From Octopus vulgaris (Eukaryota): a stretch of 64,000 nt of DNA. The position numbers and the translations under genes were made by a program. Location of the stretch: contig OX597830.1 in the NCBI GenBank assembly GCA_951406725.2, forward strand, positions 7,626,001-7,690,000, given 5' to 3'. Below are positions 5,513-56,860 of the stretch, in pieces. Below the pieces are notes generated by a model. The model had not been told where the DNA came from. It searched no databases and saw only the letters and a program-made list of their open reading frames with translations. Each line of letters begins with the position of its first letter. Position 1 is the first letter of the stretch.

Positions 5513-6750
5513 GGTATCTCAGAAAAATTTATGTAGATTTAACAGTTGATAACCCAGGTCCCATAGCTTTTAGACTTAACACATTAGAAATAACTAACAG
5601 AGCCAGATTTTGCTTTAAACGATGAAATTTAAGCTGAGAGTCCTAAAGAATGTTTCGAAGTGCAAAGATCGTGTAGGAGGGAGTTTTTCAAACAGATCTG
5701 TCTGTGCAACTTACGATCGCTCGATTTTAAAAAAAAGACTTGAAGCCGATGGACTGTTCAGAATTTCTGTAAGAAAAAGTCCAAGAAGACCCTTGACATC
5801 AACGGATCCGTAGAAAGTAAAAACGGGCACTAGAAACATTGCCTGAATTCCAGAAAATTTGTGCGGCAAGCGAGTTCATAAGATAATAATTTCAAAATTA
5901 ATGCTTGCATTGCATTTTCAAAGGCTGCTATCAGAAGGGTTACATTCTGAGAATACTTTCAATGAAGGTAATCCGAATTGAAGAATCAGATTTTTCCCGT
6001 GTTACTTGGCAGGATTTCTAGAAAATGCACACTTTCCAAGAAAAGTGGGTTGGAGTCGTGTTGCTACATTTAAAGTAGTGATTCTCAACTGAGGTCTGTA
6101 TGACCCTTGGGGTCCACATAAGATTTTAAGCGCAATATGACCCTTGGGGGTCTACATAAGATTTTATGCACAATACGACCCTTGGGGTCAACGTAAGATT
6201 TTATGCACAATATGACCCATGAGGGTCAACATAAGATTTTATGCGCAATATGGCCCTTGGGTGTCCACATAAGATATTATGCGCAATATGACCCTTGGAT
6301 GTCCACAACCGTCACTCATACATATCTGGGGACCTGAGTGTCCGCACATTACCGAGGTACATGTTATTAACTTTGCAGAGGCCGCAGTATCGATGCAGCG
6401 GCAAAAGAGATTAATGGGCCATTCTTTTTCGACGGTATTGTGACTGAAGATGTGGGTTTATATTTCCATCGGGGTGGGGATATTGCACAGCACCATAGTA
6501 ATATAACCTCGATAAGATTTTACCAAACATCTGGAATAAACGAAGAGATTCGGTAGAATGCCCTTCATGCTCACCGGGCGTCACAACACTTGATTTCTTT
6601 TTTTTTTGGGGGGGGCAGTTAAAGGGGTAATAGTCGAGGGTTCAGGGGAACCATTGAACAAGAATGCCATCAACGCAAATGTCGAACGCAATGTTTCTTG
6701 ATATTTGCAATTCCATTGTTTCGCGTTATCAGTAGAGCTGCAACCATGTT
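5511..6750 (+). mobile_element. Heavily degraded Tc1/mariner (rosa/DD41D-like) transposon
   Basis: Starts AGGGTATC (TIR-like); relic motifs IWGPECPH (~6323), GPFFF (~6416) and CSPGVTTLDFFF..G (~6573), similar to WPPRSPDLTPLDFFLWG. Confidence 0.55.
6075..6307 (+). repeat. 37-38-bp minisatellite (~5.5 copies) following a hAT-like terminus
   Basis: Unit TATGACCCTTGGGGTCCACATAAGATTTTATGCGCAA, preceded by TAGTGATTCTCAAC (CAGTGGTTCTCAAC-like). Confidence 0.75.
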
Positions 6751-7035
6751 TGTGTGTGTGTGTGTAGGCATATATGTATGCATGTACGCATGCATCTATG
6801 TATGTATGTATATATATGTATGTACATAAGTATGTATGTTTGCTTGCATTTTCGATTATTTTTCAGAATATTTTTCTACGGTGTTGGCTTTGTGGTGGTT
6901 TGCTGTGTAACAGAGTTCTTTCCTTTCTTCCATTCTTTGTTTCTTTCTCGTTTTCATTCCTTCGTACTTTTGTATTGTCTAGATTCTTTCATTTCGTTTT
7001 CTACCCCCTACTAGTTCCTTCTGTTTGCAATTTAG

Positions 7036-7154
<119 letters not shown>

Positions 7155-7172
7155 CATATATATACACACATG

Positions 7173-7203
<31 letters not shown>

Positions 7204-7984
7204 AGATGTGTGTAAATGTCTATATATATTCATACATATATATCGATATATGTGTGTACGCGTGCGTGTGTTTGTATGTATATATAACTGTGTGTTTGTG
7301 TGTGTATGCGAAGAAATTAAAAAAGAAGAGCTTAGAAAAAAAATCGACCGAAAACATTAGAAAGTAATTTTAAATGTAATAAAATAAAATAGAATAAAAT
7401 AAAAATATAAATACAATAAAATAGAATAGAGCTGGGTTAGATCCGATAGAATATAAGGCATGGTGTCAAAAAGGAAGAAGACAAAGAGGAGAAAGAAACG
7501 CCATTCACACACACACGCATGCGCACACACACACGCACGACTAAACCTGAAAGGTCACAAGAAGGTAATTTGACCTTTCAGAGACTACGAGATAAACGAT
7601 GCACACGCACACACACGCACGCACACATACATACATACACACACATACACACACACACAGAAGCAACATCGTTCTGGAGACATTTCAACGCCGTTCCATC
7701 TTTTGTTAGCAGAAAAAAGGACGTTGGTGAAGGTATGAACTTAGGAGAGAAACTTGACTGATTGCTCTCTTTAATATCACATCGGACCTAAAAATCCACC
7801 CCTCCCCGTACTCACTCCCCTCCCACCTTCTCTCTTTCCCCAGCTCTTTCTCTCTCAATCTCCATCTCTTTCTCTTTCTCCCCCCTCTCTGTCTCTCTCT
7901 CTAATTGTCATCTACCTCTTCACTTCTTCGCTGTGTCTATATATCCCTCGACGATCTCCAAGAGTCTCTTTCTCTCTTCCTCGG

Positions 7985-8040
<56 letters not shown>

Positions 8041-8139
8041 TGTATGTATGTATATATATATATATATACACAATTATATATACTTATATATAGATACATA
8101 TATATATATACTTATATATATATATACATATATATATAC

Positions 8140-8210
<71 letters not shown>

Positions 8211-8460
8211 CATACATATGTGTGTATATGAATGTATGCATGTATGTATGTATGTATGTATGTATGTTTGTATGTTTGTATGTTTGTATGTATGCATGTA
8301 AGAGTCTGTGTGAAGCTATATATCTCCGATTCTGTTTGCTTGACACTTTATTCTGACTATTGGCAAATACAACGGTTCTGTTGCTTTCCGTCAGTGTGTA
8401 TATGTGTACCCATATACATACACGTGTCTATACATTAACAGCTATATGTGGTGTTTGCTT

Positions 8461-8499
8461 AATACTAATGTTTCGCACGAGGAAGGCTTATCAGGCATT
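8461..8499 (-). ncRNA. Degenerate minimal type I hammerhead
   Basis: Minus strand AATGC-CTGATAA-GC..GC-GAAA-CATTA-GTATT; core G8 mutated. Confidence 0.4.
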
Positions 8500-9099
8500 G
8501 TTGGATAACGCCTGTTATTTCATACATGTATATTGATTCCTGAAATACATAAAAAAAAAAAACAATCCTTACGTGGCAGTGGTCGTTCATTAAATTTTTA
8601 AGACTCGTATCTTTGTTGACTCTCGTATGCGTGAGTCTTGCGTCTATGCATGTGTGTTCCTTCAGAAAGTTTGATGAATGAATGTGTTGCTATTTAAATG
8701 TGTGTGTGTATTACGCATGTATATATTATGTATATATGCAGGTATTAAGGTATACATGAATGTATGTATGTATGTATATATCTAGGTATGTATGTATAAT
8801 TTTGTGTCTGTGACTGCCATATGATACCGGTTAATGTGTCAGTTTATTAAAAGAAGTAAAACAAAATTTCGGTGTGAGTTTTTGAAAAGTAAATGGAATA
8901 GAAGAACGAATGATTTAATTTATTGTATTATTCCTGTATATTCGTTTATTTTGGGAAAGGTCAGAAGATTGCTATGTAGGGGAGTTCACTCTGACGTTAC
9001 TACTAATTAAGGCGCGAAATATTATTTGAAGAGGGAAGAAAGAGAGAAAAATGTGTTTTGTTTGATATATTATTAGTGCTGTTGGCTTGCCATTATGGC

Positions 9100-9700
9100 A
9101 TTTAACGATATGTTTTAGCATGTGAGGGCATGAAAAAATTAATTCTGTGTTTATACAATGTTTTGGTTGGGTGTTTCAGAATTCATAACCTTTCTAGAGT
9201 GCAAAGGCTACAAAAAGTTACATTTGATTGTGTATACGGTGCTGATTTACCAAAGAGTCATCATTTAATAATATGGGGTGTATTGCTATTTTTCAGAAAC
9301 CAGATAGTGTTGCCAGTGTTGCATCCCATCTCCTTTGTAATGTTCAAAGCGTATAATTATGTTGATAAGGTCTGTTCTTTCATTGCTTAGCAGTTATCCC
9401 TATATAACCACTGATATTTTGATTAATGTGTTGTTGCTGCATGTACCTGGTTTTTCTAAGCTATTACTGTTGACTGGGTAAATGCTTTGTCGACGGCAAT
9501 TGCATTTCGGTGTTCTCTTATTATCTCCGTGTTTGTTGTTCATTTTCATTTTGTGAAGCGATGCTATGGTATTAGTAGAAATTTGGTGGTAAATATCTAA
9601 TTTGAAAGAGATAGGATAATTGATCATCCTGTAATTATGTCCAAGAAGTAAGTGGATCTCTTTCAAATGTACTCTACAAATTTACATTGAGTTCTCTTTT
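9100..9700 (-). pseudogene. Possible highly degraded Penelope-like RT relic
   Basis: Minus-strand frames give TYFLDIIT then KLDIYHQIST, resembling PLE FLD..TDIY.KPT; lies upstream of the 8461 motif. Confidence 0.3.
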
Positions 9701-10351
9701 GCTTATTGAAATGCTACCGTATTTCTTTCAAATTTTGTGCCCCGACTTACATTATATAATGTTATTTTTAACTTGACAAAATGTGATTGGAAGGAAATGT
9801 GTCATCTAATTCTCTCCAGCTGAGAAGTCACGTAAGAACTTCCTCGTTAATTTGCTTGAAATATATGTATGCAGCAAGTCAGGGAAAGCTCAAGATAGCA
9901 ATCCACCATACTTTTAGTGAAGATAGCATGTCTTTGGATTGTACAGAGAGTCACGCTGTTACAAATCAGTGAAATCGGGATTCACAAAGACTTCTCGTCA
10001 TGGCAACAACAGAGTGTGTGAGAAACGAAGTCGAAAGTTTAGAGCAAAGAACAGATTGTCTTTATTTAATGGTGAAAACCGTCATGGATTAACCGCCTCT
10101 TGGTTTATAGAGTAACTCGATGAATGGCAGTAAAGTGTTGATATACAACAACGTTATTGGAGAATGAAATAACTTTAAAATATTAACTGGTAACATCCGT
10201 ATTGCCTGTGTCCTCTGTGCAGGGAAAGATATTGCGGGAAGGTGCTAACATTGTTGTGGTATTAATTCGAAGAAGGAAGCACCTTGAAATCCATTCTTCA
10301 AGAATACTTCAAATAATGTATTTGAAGCTTAAGTCTTAATGTATGTCTGTA

Positions 10352-10419
<68 letters not shown>

Positions 10420-10715
10420 CACACATCCACTGTTCATTAACGATCCGGGAGGAATATTCAATACAGATATAGAGTGTTGAAGTCCTTTATATATAATATG
10501 TCGTGTCACTTCACCTAATTTAAGTTGCCTGAAGAAGCAGCTGCAGGCTGTGGTGGAAGTTTCGTCGTAACAGGCCATTAGAGCGGTCTAAATGAGTATG
10601 TGTGAGTGTGTGCCTGTGTGTGCCTGTGTGTGTGTATGTATTTATCTTTCAGTGTGCTTCTGTGTATATGTGTATATCGCTATGTATGTCTAACTGGGCG
10701 TGTGTAAATGCGTGT

Positions 10716-23333: not shown

Positions 23334-23750
23334 CATTTAAAAGAAGAAATGAAAATGGAGATAAGGTAATTAATAATTGTTTATTATTATCAAATTGGTC
23401 ATCTTCGCTTCTCACAGCCGTTTCAACTAATACTCAATAATTCAATTACAGATTTGTGCATTAAATTTACATTTAAATTTACATTTCATCAGAGAAATAA
23501 AAGATAAATTCTGGCTGAATGAGACTCTGCTGAAATGAATTGATAGATCTACATATAACATCAAACGCTACATCTTTTCCTTTCTCTGATGAAATTATGT
23601 TCATGTCACATAAATTTAAATTTTATGTAAATATTTGTAATTAAATTATAGAGTATTAATTGAAACGGCTGTAAGAAACGAAAATCACTAATTTGTTAAT
23701 AATAAACAATTATTAACTTCCTTATCTCTCTTTTTTTCTTGTTTTAAATG
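23334..23750. mobile_element. Inverted pair of Penelope-like pLTRs, each with a hammerhead motif
   Basis: GAGATAAGGTAATTAATAATTGTTTATTATTA / TAATAATAAACAATTATTAACTTCCTTATCTC; motifs at 23408-23497(-) and 23581-23678(+). Confidence 0.75.
23581..23678 (+). ncRNA. Type I hammerhead ribozyme with long stem II insertion
   Basis: TTTCT-CTGATGA-AATTA..(59 nt)..TAATT-GAAA-CGGCTG-TA-AGAAA; complete core, GUA site. Confidence 0.7.
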
Positions 23751-24950: not shown

Positions 24951-25992
24951 TTTTTTCTTGTTTCAGCTCAGAGCTGCGGCCATGCTGATGCACCGCGGTT
25001 TTGTGCTACACTGTTATTACGAAGAACCTCCTCTAATATGTGGCACTTGGTGAAGAATGGAGTTTGATATAGCTACTCTCATTTGCACCTCTTGCCGTGA
25101 GGTAGGTTCATCTGGGACTCTCGACAGAAAGATGTCCAGTTTTGATTTAAAAACCGCTACATCTACTTTGTGCAAGTTCCTCAGACTCTTTGGGAGAATA
25201 TTAAAAAGCTGTGGGCTCTTGAAATCCAGGCTGTTGCAGAAGCTGGTCCTGAAGCGTGATGGCATTGCTGGGATCTTTGGCACTATGCAGTGTCATCCCG
25301 TTCTAGCATTGGTGTATCTTACAATGCCAAAATTTGGCACAATTTCTTCTAGGATATTCCAGACATATATTACTGAATACCTCTCCCGTCTTGTCTCCAG
25401 GGAGTAGAGTCTTAGCTGTTTCAACCTTTCCCAGTAGCTGAGCTGTTGCAAAGAGACGATCTTCTTTGTGAATCTTCTCTGGATTGCTTCAAGGTCCGCT
25501 GTTAATTTTACACTGGTGGGTGACCATAGCTGTGAGCAGTAATCCAGGCGACTGAGGACGAATGTCCGCCAGAGGACCATCATGGTTTCCTTATCTCTGG
25601 TTCTGAATGTTCTTAGGATCCATCCAGCCAGTCGTCTGCACTTTGTCGCCATCCTGGTAATGTGCACTTGGAAAGAGGTATCATCACTCATGTCGATACC
25701 CAAGTCCCTCACAGACTTAGGCTCTGGGTTTGAAATTTCCTGAGGACCGGTGTATCCTGTAAGTTTAATATTCAGTTTTGGATGCTGGTAGCGCAGGACC
25801 TGGAATTTTTCAGCATTAAACTGCATATTATTATCCTCAGCCCATCTGTAGATTGAGTCCAACTCCTGCTGCAGGTGTGCAACAAAGCTGGGGTTCTGTA
25901 TTTTCTGCGAAACTTTCGTATCGTCTGCATAGCTGGCCAGAGTGGCTATCCGGGCATTTGAGAGCATATCTGAGAGGGCCACTATAAAAAGC

Positions 25993-25993
<1 letters not shown>
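24951..25993 (-). mobile_element. 5'-truncated CR1/L2-group LINE (RT C-terminus and 3'UTR, frameshifted)
   Basis: YADDTK, MQFNAEKFQVL, RDLG, LDYCSQLWSP, LEAIQRRFTK, FKSKLDIFL motifs; 3' stem-loop tail. Confidence 0.9.
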
Positions 25994-26045
<52 letters not shown>

Positions 26046-26163
26046 CAATTAAGGAACGGCCATAATAGGCCATTCACCCACTAGAAATAACAGCCAAAGC
26101 TTCTACCGCAAATAAAGATCAATTCCGTTAACAGGAGAAAATTAAAAAAACATTTACCCTGTA

Positions 26164-26270
26164 ATTTCTTGTACGGTATACCGTTTCATTCGCTGTTTAA
26201 TGGCAAACTAACCTGATTAAATTAAATCAAGCCAATCTTCCATAAGCCCTCGAATTCTTCAGCAAGAAAT
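26164..26270 (-). ncRNA. Intact type I hammerhead ribozyme (copy 1)
   Basis: Reverse complement of 27061-27167; predicted cleavage between 26172 and 26171. Confidence 0.9.
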
Positions 26271-26655
26271 AGCTCAAGTCGGAACAGATATTTACACGAG
26301 GCATCTCGAACCTTGCCAAGGCAATATCTGACCTAAAATTTTCAAATCGTCGCACTCGCGCCAAATTTATCGGCAGCAAATAAATATCAGCCGTCGATTC
26401 CATTACGGAATTAACCAAAAAATTCATAATTAATCAATATAGGGTGGCAAGGAAAATTTTGTAGAAATTTATTGCCACCAGCGGCCCAGTGGGAAAAAAA
26501 TTAAATAGTCATAGACCATTTTTAAGTTCAACATTAACAATTAAGGAACGGCCATAATAGGCCATTCACCCACTAGAAATAACAGCCAAAGCTTCTACCG
26601 CAAATAAAGATCAATTCCGTTAACAGGAGAAAATTAAAAAAACATTTACCCTGTA

Positions 26656-26763
26656 ATTTCTTGTACGGTATACCGTTTCATTCGCTGTTTAATGGCAAAA
26701 CTAACCTGATTAAATTAAATCAAGCCAATCTTCCATAAGCCCTCGAATTCTTCAGCAAGAAAT
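26656..26763 (-). ncRNA. Intact type I hammerhead ribozyme (copy 2)
   Basis: Same as copy 1, 492 bp away; predicted cleavage between 26664 and 26663. Confidence 0.9.
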
Positions 26764-27060
26764 AGCTCAAGTCGGAACAGATATTTACACGAGGCATCTC
26801 GAACCTAAAAATGGTCTATGACTATTTAATTTTTTTTCCCATTGGGCCGTTGGTGGCAATAAATTTCTACAAAATTTTCCTTGCCACCCTATATTGATTA
26901 ATTATGAATTTTTTGGTTAATTCCGTAATGGAATCGACGGCTGATATTTATTTGCTGCCGATAAATTTGGCGCGAGTGCGACGATTTGAAAATTTTAGGT
27001 CAGATATTGCCTTGGCAAGGTTCGAGATGCCTCGTGTAAATATCTGTTCCGACTTGAGCT

Positions 27061-27167
27061 ATTTCTTGCTGAAGAATTCGAGGGCTTATGGAAGATTGGC
27101 TTGATTTAATTTAATCAGGTTAGTTTGCCATTAAACAGCGAATGAAACGGTATACCGTACAAGAAAT
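27061..27167 (+). ncRNA. Intact type I hammerhead ribozyme (copy 3)
   Basis: Stem I ATTTCTTG/CAAGAAAT; core CTGAAGA 27069-75; stem II ATTCG/CGAAT enclosing a 58-nt hairpin; GAAA 27144-47; stem III ACGG-TATA-CCGT; GUA site, cut after 27159. Confidence 0.92.
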
Positions 27168-27705
27168 TACAGGGTAAATGTTTTTTTAATTTTCTCCTGT
27201 TAACGGAATTGATCTTTATTTGCGGTAGAAGCTTTGGCTGTTATTTCTAGTGGGTGAATGGCCTATTATGGCCGTTCCTTAATTGTTAATGTTGAACTTA
27301 AAAATGGTCTATGACTATTTAATTTTTTCCCACTGGGCCGCTGGTGGCAATAAATTTCTACAAAATTTTCCTTGCCACCCTATATTGATTAATTATATAT
27401 ATATATATATATAGATAGATAGATAGATATATGTACGTGGGCTTTCTGTGTGTATGTGTGTGTGCATCGTGTATGTTTGTGTTAACGTGCGTATGTGTAT
27501 GTGTATCTGTTTTTCTTTTTGGGTGATTAATTTCTAATAGAAAAAAATAAATAAACGATGTGTAAAGACTGCCAGGCACCTGTAGCAATTTCTACAACAC
27601 GGCCATTAAATTTGATAAGCAGTTTTATGGTTGACTTATGAACCCGGCACATACTTTCTTGTATATCTGTATGTATATGTACATATGTGTATATACATAT
27701 ATACA

Positions 27706-55724: not shown

Positions 55725-56860
55725 CCAACGACCGCGTGATCTCCAACCACTCCTTATTCCAGCGGCGAACGCCGTAGATATGGGGACCTAGGTTGGGTTC
55801 CAGATCAGCCTTGACTGTCATCAGCTAGGTTTTTCGTTGTTCACCACATCGCTTTCGCCAACCCTGAAGGGGAGCTGGGGCAATTGCTTTGTAGATGAAT
55901 TCTCCTGGTTGACGACGGAGGGCATGACCCAGCCAACACAGACGCCTCGTTAGGATGACTTGTCAGAGGGAGGTGATTCTGCACTGGTGTCGCACCGAAT
56001 TGTTGGAGACAAAGTGATGCTATCGGGCATGAAGGGTGCGGCATAGACAGAGGTGATCGAAGGATTCTAGTCGCTTAATATCTTCCACCCTCATTGGCCA
56101 TGACTCGCTGCCGTAAAGGAGAATCGTTCGCACTAGTGCTTGGTAGATCCTTTCTTTGGTGGTGCGTCGGATCTCAGATCTTGAGCAGAGTCGTGCACTG
56201 AGTCGGTTGAAGGCTTGGCGAGCGAGGTCGATTCGTGTTATAATGTCAGCCTCACCTTGACCTGTAGCTGTAATGATGGCGCCAAGGTATTTGAAACTCT
56301 CAACCTCTTCAAGAATATCACCATTGCGGACAATGGGTGTTTTGTCTGGTGGGGCAAAGCCGGCTGTGAGGATTTTGGTCTTCGAGGCATTGACTTTCAT
56401 ACCAATCTGCGATGCAACACGCTGGAGCTCATTGATAGCAAACTGGACGTCAGCAAATGTTTCACCAAGTATCGCAATGTCATCTGCATAGTCTAGATCC
56501 TTGACGGAAAAGTTGTGACCAACAGTGATACCGGGGAAACTCCCTTAATGCATTTGTGGTGATCCAGTCGATGGCGTAATTGAAAAGAGTTGGCGAAAGA
56601 ACACATCCCTGCCGAACGCCAGACCGTATTTCGAAGGGTTCCGACACTTCACCATACACGCGTACGCGGTATCTTGTTGAGCGGTAATAAGCTTTGATAA
56701 GATTGAGAAGTTTAGGTGGGATACCATCTGCCTGCATGACCTTCCAGAGGGTGTCACGAGTCGAATGCAGCATCTGAGACGATTCCAATCAGAATGTGAC
56801 TCTAGAACAAGACCAAACCAGTGTAGTTTCCGTCCAAATCGATGCTGCACCGATCAAATC
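55725..56860 (-). mobile_element. RTE-clade LINE RT fragment, frameshifted
   Basis: SGVRQGCVLSPTLFNYAIDW, DLDYADDIA, KVNASKTKIL, VESFKYLG, LLYGSESW. Confidence 0.9.

Follow-up and report, generated by a model that had tools for sequence, protein, structure and literature searches.

A predicted hammerhead ribozyme with a long stem II in an Octopus vulgaris tandem retrozyme whose (TA)n insertions end at two fixed sites

In the 64,000-nt stretch of Octopus vulgaris DNA analysed here (GenBank assembly GCA_951406725.2, contig OX597830.1, positions 7,626,001 to 7,690,000; ‘the window’), a hammerhead ribozyme motif at 27061–27167 on the plus strand lies in an inverted, two-armed repeat element flanked by (TA)n on both sides. 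Three copies of the motif fall within 1.36 kb, one per 492-nt repeat unit. The two minus-strand copies, absent from an earlier reading of this sequence (the original prediction), lie at 26164–26270, with a predicted cut between 26172 and 26171, and at 26656–26763, whose stem II extension contains an additional U and whose cut is predicted between 26664 and 26663. Numbering the unit from the predicted cut site, the left arm (26041–26806, minus strand) comprises positions 351–492, one full 492-nt unit and then positions 1–131, its 3′ end in the ribozyme sense falling at a position termed site A. The right arm (26801–27396, plus strand) runs from position 135 to 492 and on through 1–238, with its 3′ end at site B. 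The 5′ ends of the two arms meet at a central inverted junction with about 6 nt of overlap (microhomology, 26801–26806). The flanking microsatellites, both identified by TRF, span 25993–26042, adjoining the A end of the minus arm, and 27394–27432.

The plus-strand motif reads as a type I hammerhead, with the CUGANGA, GAAA and UH core set around three stems and with stem I open. Stem I is 8 bp long (27061–27068 paired with 27160–27167), and the core is formed by 27069–27075 (CUGAAGA) and 27144–27147, of which 27144–27146 read GAA. Stem II (27076–27143, 68 nt in total) has a 5-bp base, AUUCG at 27076–27080 with CGAAU at 27139–27143, enclosing a 58-nt insert (27081–27138) that consists of a 7×7 internal loop (27081–27087/27132–27138) and an 18-bp capping hairpin (27088–27131) with five G-U pairs. 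Stem III, ACGGUAUACCGU at 27147–27158, is a perfect 12-nt palindrome that could form either a monomer hairpin or a duplex with the stem III of the next unit. The cleavage triplet is GUA, and the cut is predicted after A27159. The hammerhead originally described, with its 58-nt stem II extension and 12-nt palindromic stem III, is thus confirmed from the sequence with a full type I core.

The 107-nt motif adopts the described fold on the plus strand at −32.9 kcal/mol (z −4.95, with 0 of 200 shuffles as good). The minus strand folds less well (−19.6 kcal/mol, z −2.73, 2 of 200 shuffles), in line with the earlier expectation that the pairing is specific to the plus strand. It had also been suggested that length-limited motif searches could overlook such a form, which holds for Rfam: no hammerhead match was found at the gathering score in the whole window, nor at E ≤ 10 in 26000–27500. 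The form is nevertheless abundant. In the genome searched (2.8 Gb in 227 contigs), the motif pattern gave 2,773 matches against one for a reversed control, and the unit query gave 265 matches from 40 of the 1,171 candidates scored.

To examine conservation, 27 variants were chosen by hand from subfamilies up to about 20% apart. In this set 96.4% of cells were paired, compared with 28–42% in slid controls, and nine of 36 pairs had changed on both sides: four in stem I, three in the stem II base and two in stem III, including its centre. Within the 18-bp extension 99% of cells were paired, and ten of the 18 pairs showed one-sided changes that keep pairing, with none two-sided. Cells count sequences and not events, so the independent changes are fewer than these figures. 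Stems I, II and III are preserved through compensatory change. This bears out an RNA-level function for the plus strand and shows that the extension is conserved among family members, as the original prediction had proposed and as the comparison of genomic copies was meant to reveal. The window’s own subfamily has two stem II pairs swapped relative to the majority. Core position 7 can be any of the four bases and position 17 is A or C, and the other core positions are fixed. A sister family rebuilds the same extension in different letters, and in a second group three pairs of the distal hairpin have changed on both sides. RNAalifold applied to 16 full units found the ends of the cut monomer paired as stem I, together with hairpins around the A and B sites.

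In our model the extension is not inert, since its internal loop offers a pairing partner to the five bases lying immediately 5′ of stem I. The predicted pseudoknot joins GAGCU (27056–27060), which falls outside the coordinates of the original prediction, to GGCUU (27083–27087), on the 5′ side of the internal loop adjoining the stem II base. In a first alignment, pairing holds in 21 of 21 sequences at each of the four columns examined, and includes one A-U/G-C swap. A helix of at least 4 bp abutting stem I was the best helix in 46 of 54 distinct variants, its letters differing in older subfamilies and in the sister family. Pseudoknots joining stems I and II have been predicted in about 40% of hammerheads, and fast cleavage depended on them in the cases tested (Perreault et al. 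2011, PMC3088659). As there, a pseudoknot of 4–6 bp is predicted to hold the two stems together. The present case differs in that a long stem II supplies the partner from an internal loop, and in that the ribozyme is a repetitive type I form from an animal. We infer that this loop stands in for loop 2 and that the long hairpin caps it.

The 492-nt unit has the features of a metazoan non-LTR (long terminal repeat) retrozyme. At least two consecutive tandem units each carry a type I hammerhead, and the unit is a few hundred bases long, with a G+C content below 50% (180/492) and no open reading frame (ORF): none of at least 120 aa was found in the element, nor any ORF encoding a reverse transcriptase (RT) plus GIY-YIG, and tblastn of Hydra-type proteins gave no match in the window. 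Its length exceeds the 150–450 nt given by Cervera and de la Peña 2020 (PMC7229834) and lies inside the 51–972 nt given by Li et al. 2026 (bioRxiv 10.64898/2026.07.22.740005). Folded as a circle, the unit reaches −140 kcal/mol in the ribozyme sense and −92.5 in the antisense, with 30 shuffles at −109 ± 6.5. On these sequence features the element fits a metazoan non-LTR retrozyme, predicted to be self-cleaving. It resembles those in the two studies in being a non-coding, low-GC tandem repeat with one type I hammerhead per unit, and those retrozymes are likewise proposed there to be moved by Penelope-like elements. It departs from those retrozymes in its 68-nt stem II, where a predicted internal-loop pseudoknot replaces the short loop 2, and in its two-armed insertions with strictly one end of each kind in (TA)n, neither feature having been seen described there. 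Parts of the unit were found in sequencing runs of five organism labels, and contigs from four of them (B, C, D and E) were aligned to it. Among the contigs listed from eight sequencing runs, two head-to-tail joints were seen, compatible with a circle or an array, and no loose end with poly(A).

The insertion footprint was mapped at 67 loci, comprising the 40 best hits of the unit query, the window’s included, and the 27 first-listed hits of the motif pattern. Fifty-one of these are two-armed and all 51 are arranged minus-then-plus, so that the 3′ ends face the flanks. The outer ends are narrowly fixed, at site A (+131, with ends at +120 to +136) and site B (+238, with ends at +228 to +244). 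At 43 of the 51 two-armed loci one arm ends at A and the other at B, and none has A/A or B/B. The remaining eight have one end elsewhere (two at 245–246, two from one duplicated locus). One-armed loci (n = 16) divide evenly, eight ending at A and eight at B, and (TA)n abuts 106 of the 110 A/B ends. Inner junctions are scattered, with short overlaps or fillers. In the window, unit positions 1–131 (27160–27290, plus strand) cover the interval between the cut site and site A, the inferred first start of reverse transcription, and contain conserved hairpins. From there a structured 107-nt ‘tail’ (27291–27396, plus strand), delimited by locus mapping and RNAalifold, extends to site B, the second inferred start.

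Several features tie the two arms of an insertion to one template. Opposite arms differ by 0.7%, compared with 4.9% between loci. A private variant occurs in all covering units at eight of the 34 loci with at least three units, and on both arms at six of 23 two-armed loci, although an unsampled homogeneous source array could also produce such sharing. The longest arm holds about 14 units (L035). Arm 5′ ends concentrate just downstream of the cut site, with 14 of 118 at +1 to +13 (12 of 116 after removal of the duplicate locus, against 3.1 expected, p 6e-5) and one of 118 in the 13 nt before the cut. This pile-up fits run-off from cut RNA, or RT stalling at stem I. The duplicated locus (L036 and L037) shows the same insertion and flanking degraded Hydra-type element twice, 360 kb apart and in opposite orientation; it is either a segmental duplication or an assembly duplicate, and one arm’s 5′ end lies exactly at the cut site.

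Since these insertions end at two fixed sites, one per arm, it is likely that both sides of a DNA break receive copies of a single RNA, made by a Penelope-like enzyme. The footprint reported for Penelope-like elements combines an inverted partner copy with microsatellite targets and a tail that is often confined to one end (Craig et al. 2021, PMC8557442). For an anole element, Frangieh et al. 2024 (PMC11167929) describe the tail as the stretch between two RT starts, with both target strands extended and the protein modelled as a dimer. The octopus insertions share the inverted 5′-truncated partner, the tail at one end, the AT-rich microsatellite target and, in the reading proposed here, the two RT starts and the extension of both strands. 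Their tail is 107 nt and not 30–40 nt, they have no ORF, and their arms reach about 14 units. The one-tail rule is also strict here (0 of 51 loci with equal ends), whereas the start sites reported in vitro for the anole element are the same for both strands.

The enzyme was sought among Penelope-like elements of the same genome. Another pattern, combining a 45–75-nt stem II with an 8-nt stem III, gave 5,015 matches against 14 for its control, and many of these ribozymes lie in the end repeats of Hydra-type elements (L121–L150, L201–L220, L251–L270 and L383–L385), some of which have open frames of 800–1,100 aa. One such ORF, of 954 aa (L216), contains RWK and DKT motifs, a CxCX5C linker, CxxC and CxH motifs plus a GIY-YIG at the C-terminus, matching the description of Hydra elements by Craig et al. 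2021; the single Hydra-type open frame tested against Pfam gave no match. On these motifs, L216 and its kin fit a Hydra-type assignment. Four Hydra-type RT groups, about 40–65% identical to one another, have 51–60-nt stems II and self-complementary stems III. Twenty hand-picked two-armed loci of the long-stem-II groups are all divergent, and 16 of them end at +22–47 on one side and +111–156 on the other, mostly paired short and long ends as in the retrozyme. Hydra-type tails are about 70–120 nt, a range that includes the retrozyme’s 107 nt. Hydra-clade elements as described by Craig et al. 2021 likewise target (TA)n and carry a hammerhead in their end repeats, the ribozymes being termed canonical there. 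The retrozyme hence shares ribozyme architecture, tail length and target with the Hydra-type elements of this genome, yet has no detectable shared sequence with those sampled. The link to Hydra rests on these three features because no autonomous element sharing the unit sequence was found among the loci fetched. By this analogy a Hydra-type enzyme is the likely mobiliser. Apparent parent links at L073, L036/L037, L047 and L350 proved to be separate insertions beside unrelated elements.

On balance, we consider it likely that the motif represents the type I hammerhead, predicted to be self-cleaving, of a non-coding tandem retrozyme with a 492-nt unit that is copied into (TA)n by a Penelope-like and likely Hydra-clade enzyme that primes both sides of a break from two fixed sites on one RNA. 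The basis for this reading is a repeat family with covarying stems, a two-armed layout with one A and one B end, a (TA)n target, variants shared between arms, and intact Hydra-type elements whose ribozymes and ends resemble those of the retrozyme; from this we infer cleavage, circles, expression and the enzyme. In the proposed mechanism, tandem transcripts would be cut at the hammerhead and possibly re-ligated into circles. A 4–6-bp pseudoknot, formed by the stem II internal loop with the strand on the 5′ side of stem I, would keep the ribozyme active, with that loop replacing loop 2 and the 18-bp hairpin merely capping it. In multimers, neighbouring palindromic stems III may also form a double hammerhead. 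A dimeric RT-GIY-YIG protein would bind the structured A–B domain, nick both (TA)n strands and start cDNAs at +131 and +238. Synthesis of both cDNAs would continue round a circle, or follow an uncut multimer, and stop where the template ends at a cut site or stalling occurs near one, after which the two same-sense cDNAs would be joined tail to tail via microhomology. A more specific version is tentative, and we would rather doubt than expect it in full: a dimeric Hydra-clade enzyme working on one circular RNA with two dedicated priming sites, both RTs rolling round until the hammerhead opens the circle, and the long-stem-II pseudoknotted hammerhead being an overlooked, clade-typical architecture with close to 7,800 matches in the genome.

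A number of points weigh against the proposed retrozyme and its Hydra-clade enzyme. At the ribozyme, pair 10.1–11.1 is A-U instead of the usual G-C. An alternative fold that hides the core was raised at the outset as a possible refutation; the 107 nt fold as described, but when the full unit is folded without pseudoknots stem I is displaced (probability 0.01) by a local hairpin that employs the same upstream strand as the pseudoknot, and active folds lie 3–4 kcal/mol above the minimum. When letters are shuffled row by row the pseudoknot is weak (p 0.03–0.4), and its swaps are inherited events, not independent counts; because single rows are weak against shuffles, the case for it rests on its fixed register and covariation. 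Eight of nine predicted Xenopus retrozymes failed to cleave in vitro (bioRxiv 10.64898/2026.07.22.740005). The mapped loci are best or first-listed hits, no random sample, and the 5′-end pile-up lies mostly at +8 to +13, with only four of 116 ends at +1 to +7 (p 0.08). The substrate described for the anole element is uncut RNA (PMC11167929). No autonomous element sharing the unit sequence was found among the Penelope-like loci fetched, in a search (one GIY-YIG family scan, two Hydra-type RT scans, and variant and sister-family scans) that scored the best 125–150 of 6,000–10,600 candidates per scan, with few fetched, and so does not establish absence. An intact Neptune-like family likewise targets (TA)n.

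This last family bears directly on the choice of enzyme. It has a 479-aa upstream ORF overlapping a 781-aa RT-GIY-YIG ORF, with 504-nt end repeats in (TA)n (L104:744–5990), and the label Neptune-like is our own, given by its linker. The same retrozyme could undergo the same two-site insertion with this family, or an unsampled Penelope-like family, as the mobiliser. Many intact 781-aa copies located in (TA)n favour this, as does the lack of a Hydra-type parent with the unit sequence among the loci fetched. The Neptune-like family, however, has alternative ends only about 30–40 nt apart, our own scan found no hammerhead in its repeat, and it has no similarity to the unit, whereas the unit’s tail length and long stem II match the Hydra-type groups. 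We regard this alternative as unlikely. A more radical alternative is that the element is a satellite-like repeat, growing by local DNA recombination and carrying a dead ribozyme relic. Tandem arrays and the absence of an ORF would suit it, and local amplification has been proposed for vertebrate retrozymes (bioRxiv 10.64898/2026.07.22.740005). It is very improbable in view of the dispersed loci, the fixed outer ends with scattered inner ends, the strict orientation and the (TA)n target; the strand-specific folding and compensatory changes also speak against it, and the one-A-one-B end rule contradicts it unless some DNA mechanism yields one A and one B end.

Two further ideas concern what the unusual stems of the ribozyme are for. 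The long stem II could hide a poly(A) signal (AAUAAA/AUUAAA) 16–25 nt before the cut, allowing a parent element to toggle between mRNA and read-through template. An AUUAAA hexamer read from the sequence lies 24 nt before the cut (27130–27135, plus strand) and is retained in older subfamilies. AAUAAA or AUUAAA recurs in two Hydra-type groups, in one of which the extension is most strongly conserved at columns that include AAUAAA, several lineages having changed to AUUAAA. The sequences are AT-rich, however, and the hexamer is missing from one window subfamily, which has AUUAAU instead, while L273, L383–L385, L288/L321 and L036 lack it in their long stems II. In the sister family its bases are replaced and the helix is kept. 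Because the sister family and several other long stems II lack the hexamer, we rank this idea low and think it quite improbable. The palindromic stem III raises the other question, namely whether cleavage occurs solely as a double hammerhead of two neighbouring palindromic stems III, so that multimers would be cut and unit circles spared. Every hairpin is an inverted repeat, so only the central 2–4 nt of the palindrome add information. Among the 27 variants this centre shows an AU to GC double change that keeps self-complementarity. A self-complementary centre occurs in 14 of 15 hand-listed family or subfamily types, the exception being one AC-centre subfamily; the list did not cover families with a short stem II, or degraded ones, whose stem III is odd in length or not palindromic. 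Metazoan type I hammerheads provide precedents for a palindromic helix III and for cleavage as dimers (PMC4209133; also PMC3088659, Fig. S8 legend). Energetically, the stem III duplex is favoured over the hairpin (−15.4 versus −1.2 kcal/mol), and the minimum fold of a two-unit RNA pairs both palindromes. On the other side, monomer stem III forms with probability 0.96 in a single unit, two-unit folds with one active monomer (−300.5 kcal/mol) or one active half of a double hammerhead (−301.1 kcal/mol) lie within 0.6 kcal/mol, one subfamily has the AC centre, and the pseudoknot would favour the monomer. Cleavage by this route alone has somewhat less than an even chance in our estimate, and it refines the best explanation and does not displace it.

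The earlier suggestion that two tandem ribozymes pair through the palindrome is hence plausible in these folding models, with the pairing between neighbouring units of one RNA and not between molecules; it is already known for metazoan type I hammerheads and is not required for this motif. The motif itself is not a minimal hammerhead, the 8-bp stem I, 3–4-bp stem III and predicted stem I–stem II pseudoknot all speaking against it. The minimal Penelope hammerheads of Cervera and de la Peña 2014 (PMC4209133) are also type I, with a palindromic helix III, an enlarged helix II and possible dimers. Their helix I is described as 4–5 bp long and their helix III as scarcely present or absent, with a base bulging out after A9 and a G10.1–C11.1 pair, and the present motif differs on all four counts, with an 8-bp helix I, a 3–4-bp helix III, no bulge and an A-U pair, and in addition carries the 58-nt extension. 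Only the palindromic helix III agrees with that definition.

The novelty lies in the architecture and abundance of the ribozyme and in a sharply quantified footprint of insertion that points to two-site priming on one template. In the literature covered, which lacks most subscription papers, we found no account of a long-stem-II pseudoknotted animal hammerhead, although the ribozyme drawings of Craig et al. could already show long-armed Hydra ribozymes; nor did we find, within the same coverage, an account of a strict one-A-one-B rule in retrozymes. These results address what mobilises animal retrozymes and how inverted, one-tailed Penelope-like insertions originate. Retrozymes have been proposed as non-autonomous partners of Penelope-like elements (PMC7229834), and the published link rests on co-occurrence and sequence likeness (bioRxiv 10.64898/2026.07.22.740005). 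The family supplies a clean footprint, with fixed paired start sites, one template per insertion and termination near the cut site, and its 492-nt RNA could be assayed directly in vitro together with an intact enzyme encoded by this genome. Rfam can miss a hammerhead class this large (2,773 plus 5,015 pattern matches here), and therefore ribozyme censuses of animal genomes may undercount.

Several related sequences were noted alongside. The sister retrozyme family (L376:1798–2287, L353–L382) has a 490-nt unit about 65% identical to the present one, with ends at +147 and +243. Numerous mini-insertions of this family have each arm stopping no more than about 35 nt from the cut site, the pattern that unit-length linear RNA should give; these were query-biased, and they were excluded from the counts because the query had that shape. 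A third relative (L350:470–680) combines a 46-nt stem II with a different perfect 12-nt palindrome in stem III. Another hammerhead family (L066:433 and 913, five matches) has a 12-nt stem II and a non-palindromic stem III, its first two matches being 480 nt apart. A further Penelope-like RT-GIY-YIG family (L074:2360–2420 and the L115 3′ region) carries a hammerhead downstream of its ORF, with an 18-nt stem II and a 6-nt palindromic stem III.

With regard to RNA editing, none of nine locus-fixed variants is A>G, the signature of editing at an RNA stage. Contigs from runs X3 and X5, guessed to be RNA, show an A>G excess over window positions 26806–27395 (17 versus 6 T>C, and 18 versus 4), and a contig from run X20 has clustered T>C changes. 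The excess looks like hyper-editing of double-stranded RNA from inverted arms, though allelic differences may also account for it.

Elsewhere in the window, two RT fragments (Pfam RVT_1) lie on the minus strand at 25293–25990 and 56020–56544. The former adjoins the left (TA)n run, outside the retrozyme, and is LINE-like by our own reading. A weak hammerhead-like match at 23586–23690 on the plus strand, with CUGAUGA, 69 nt, GAAA and a stem III that is not palindromic, could have arisen by chance or through decay of a former copy. A tandem repeat with a 38/75-nt period and 5.6 copies occupies 6099–6307.
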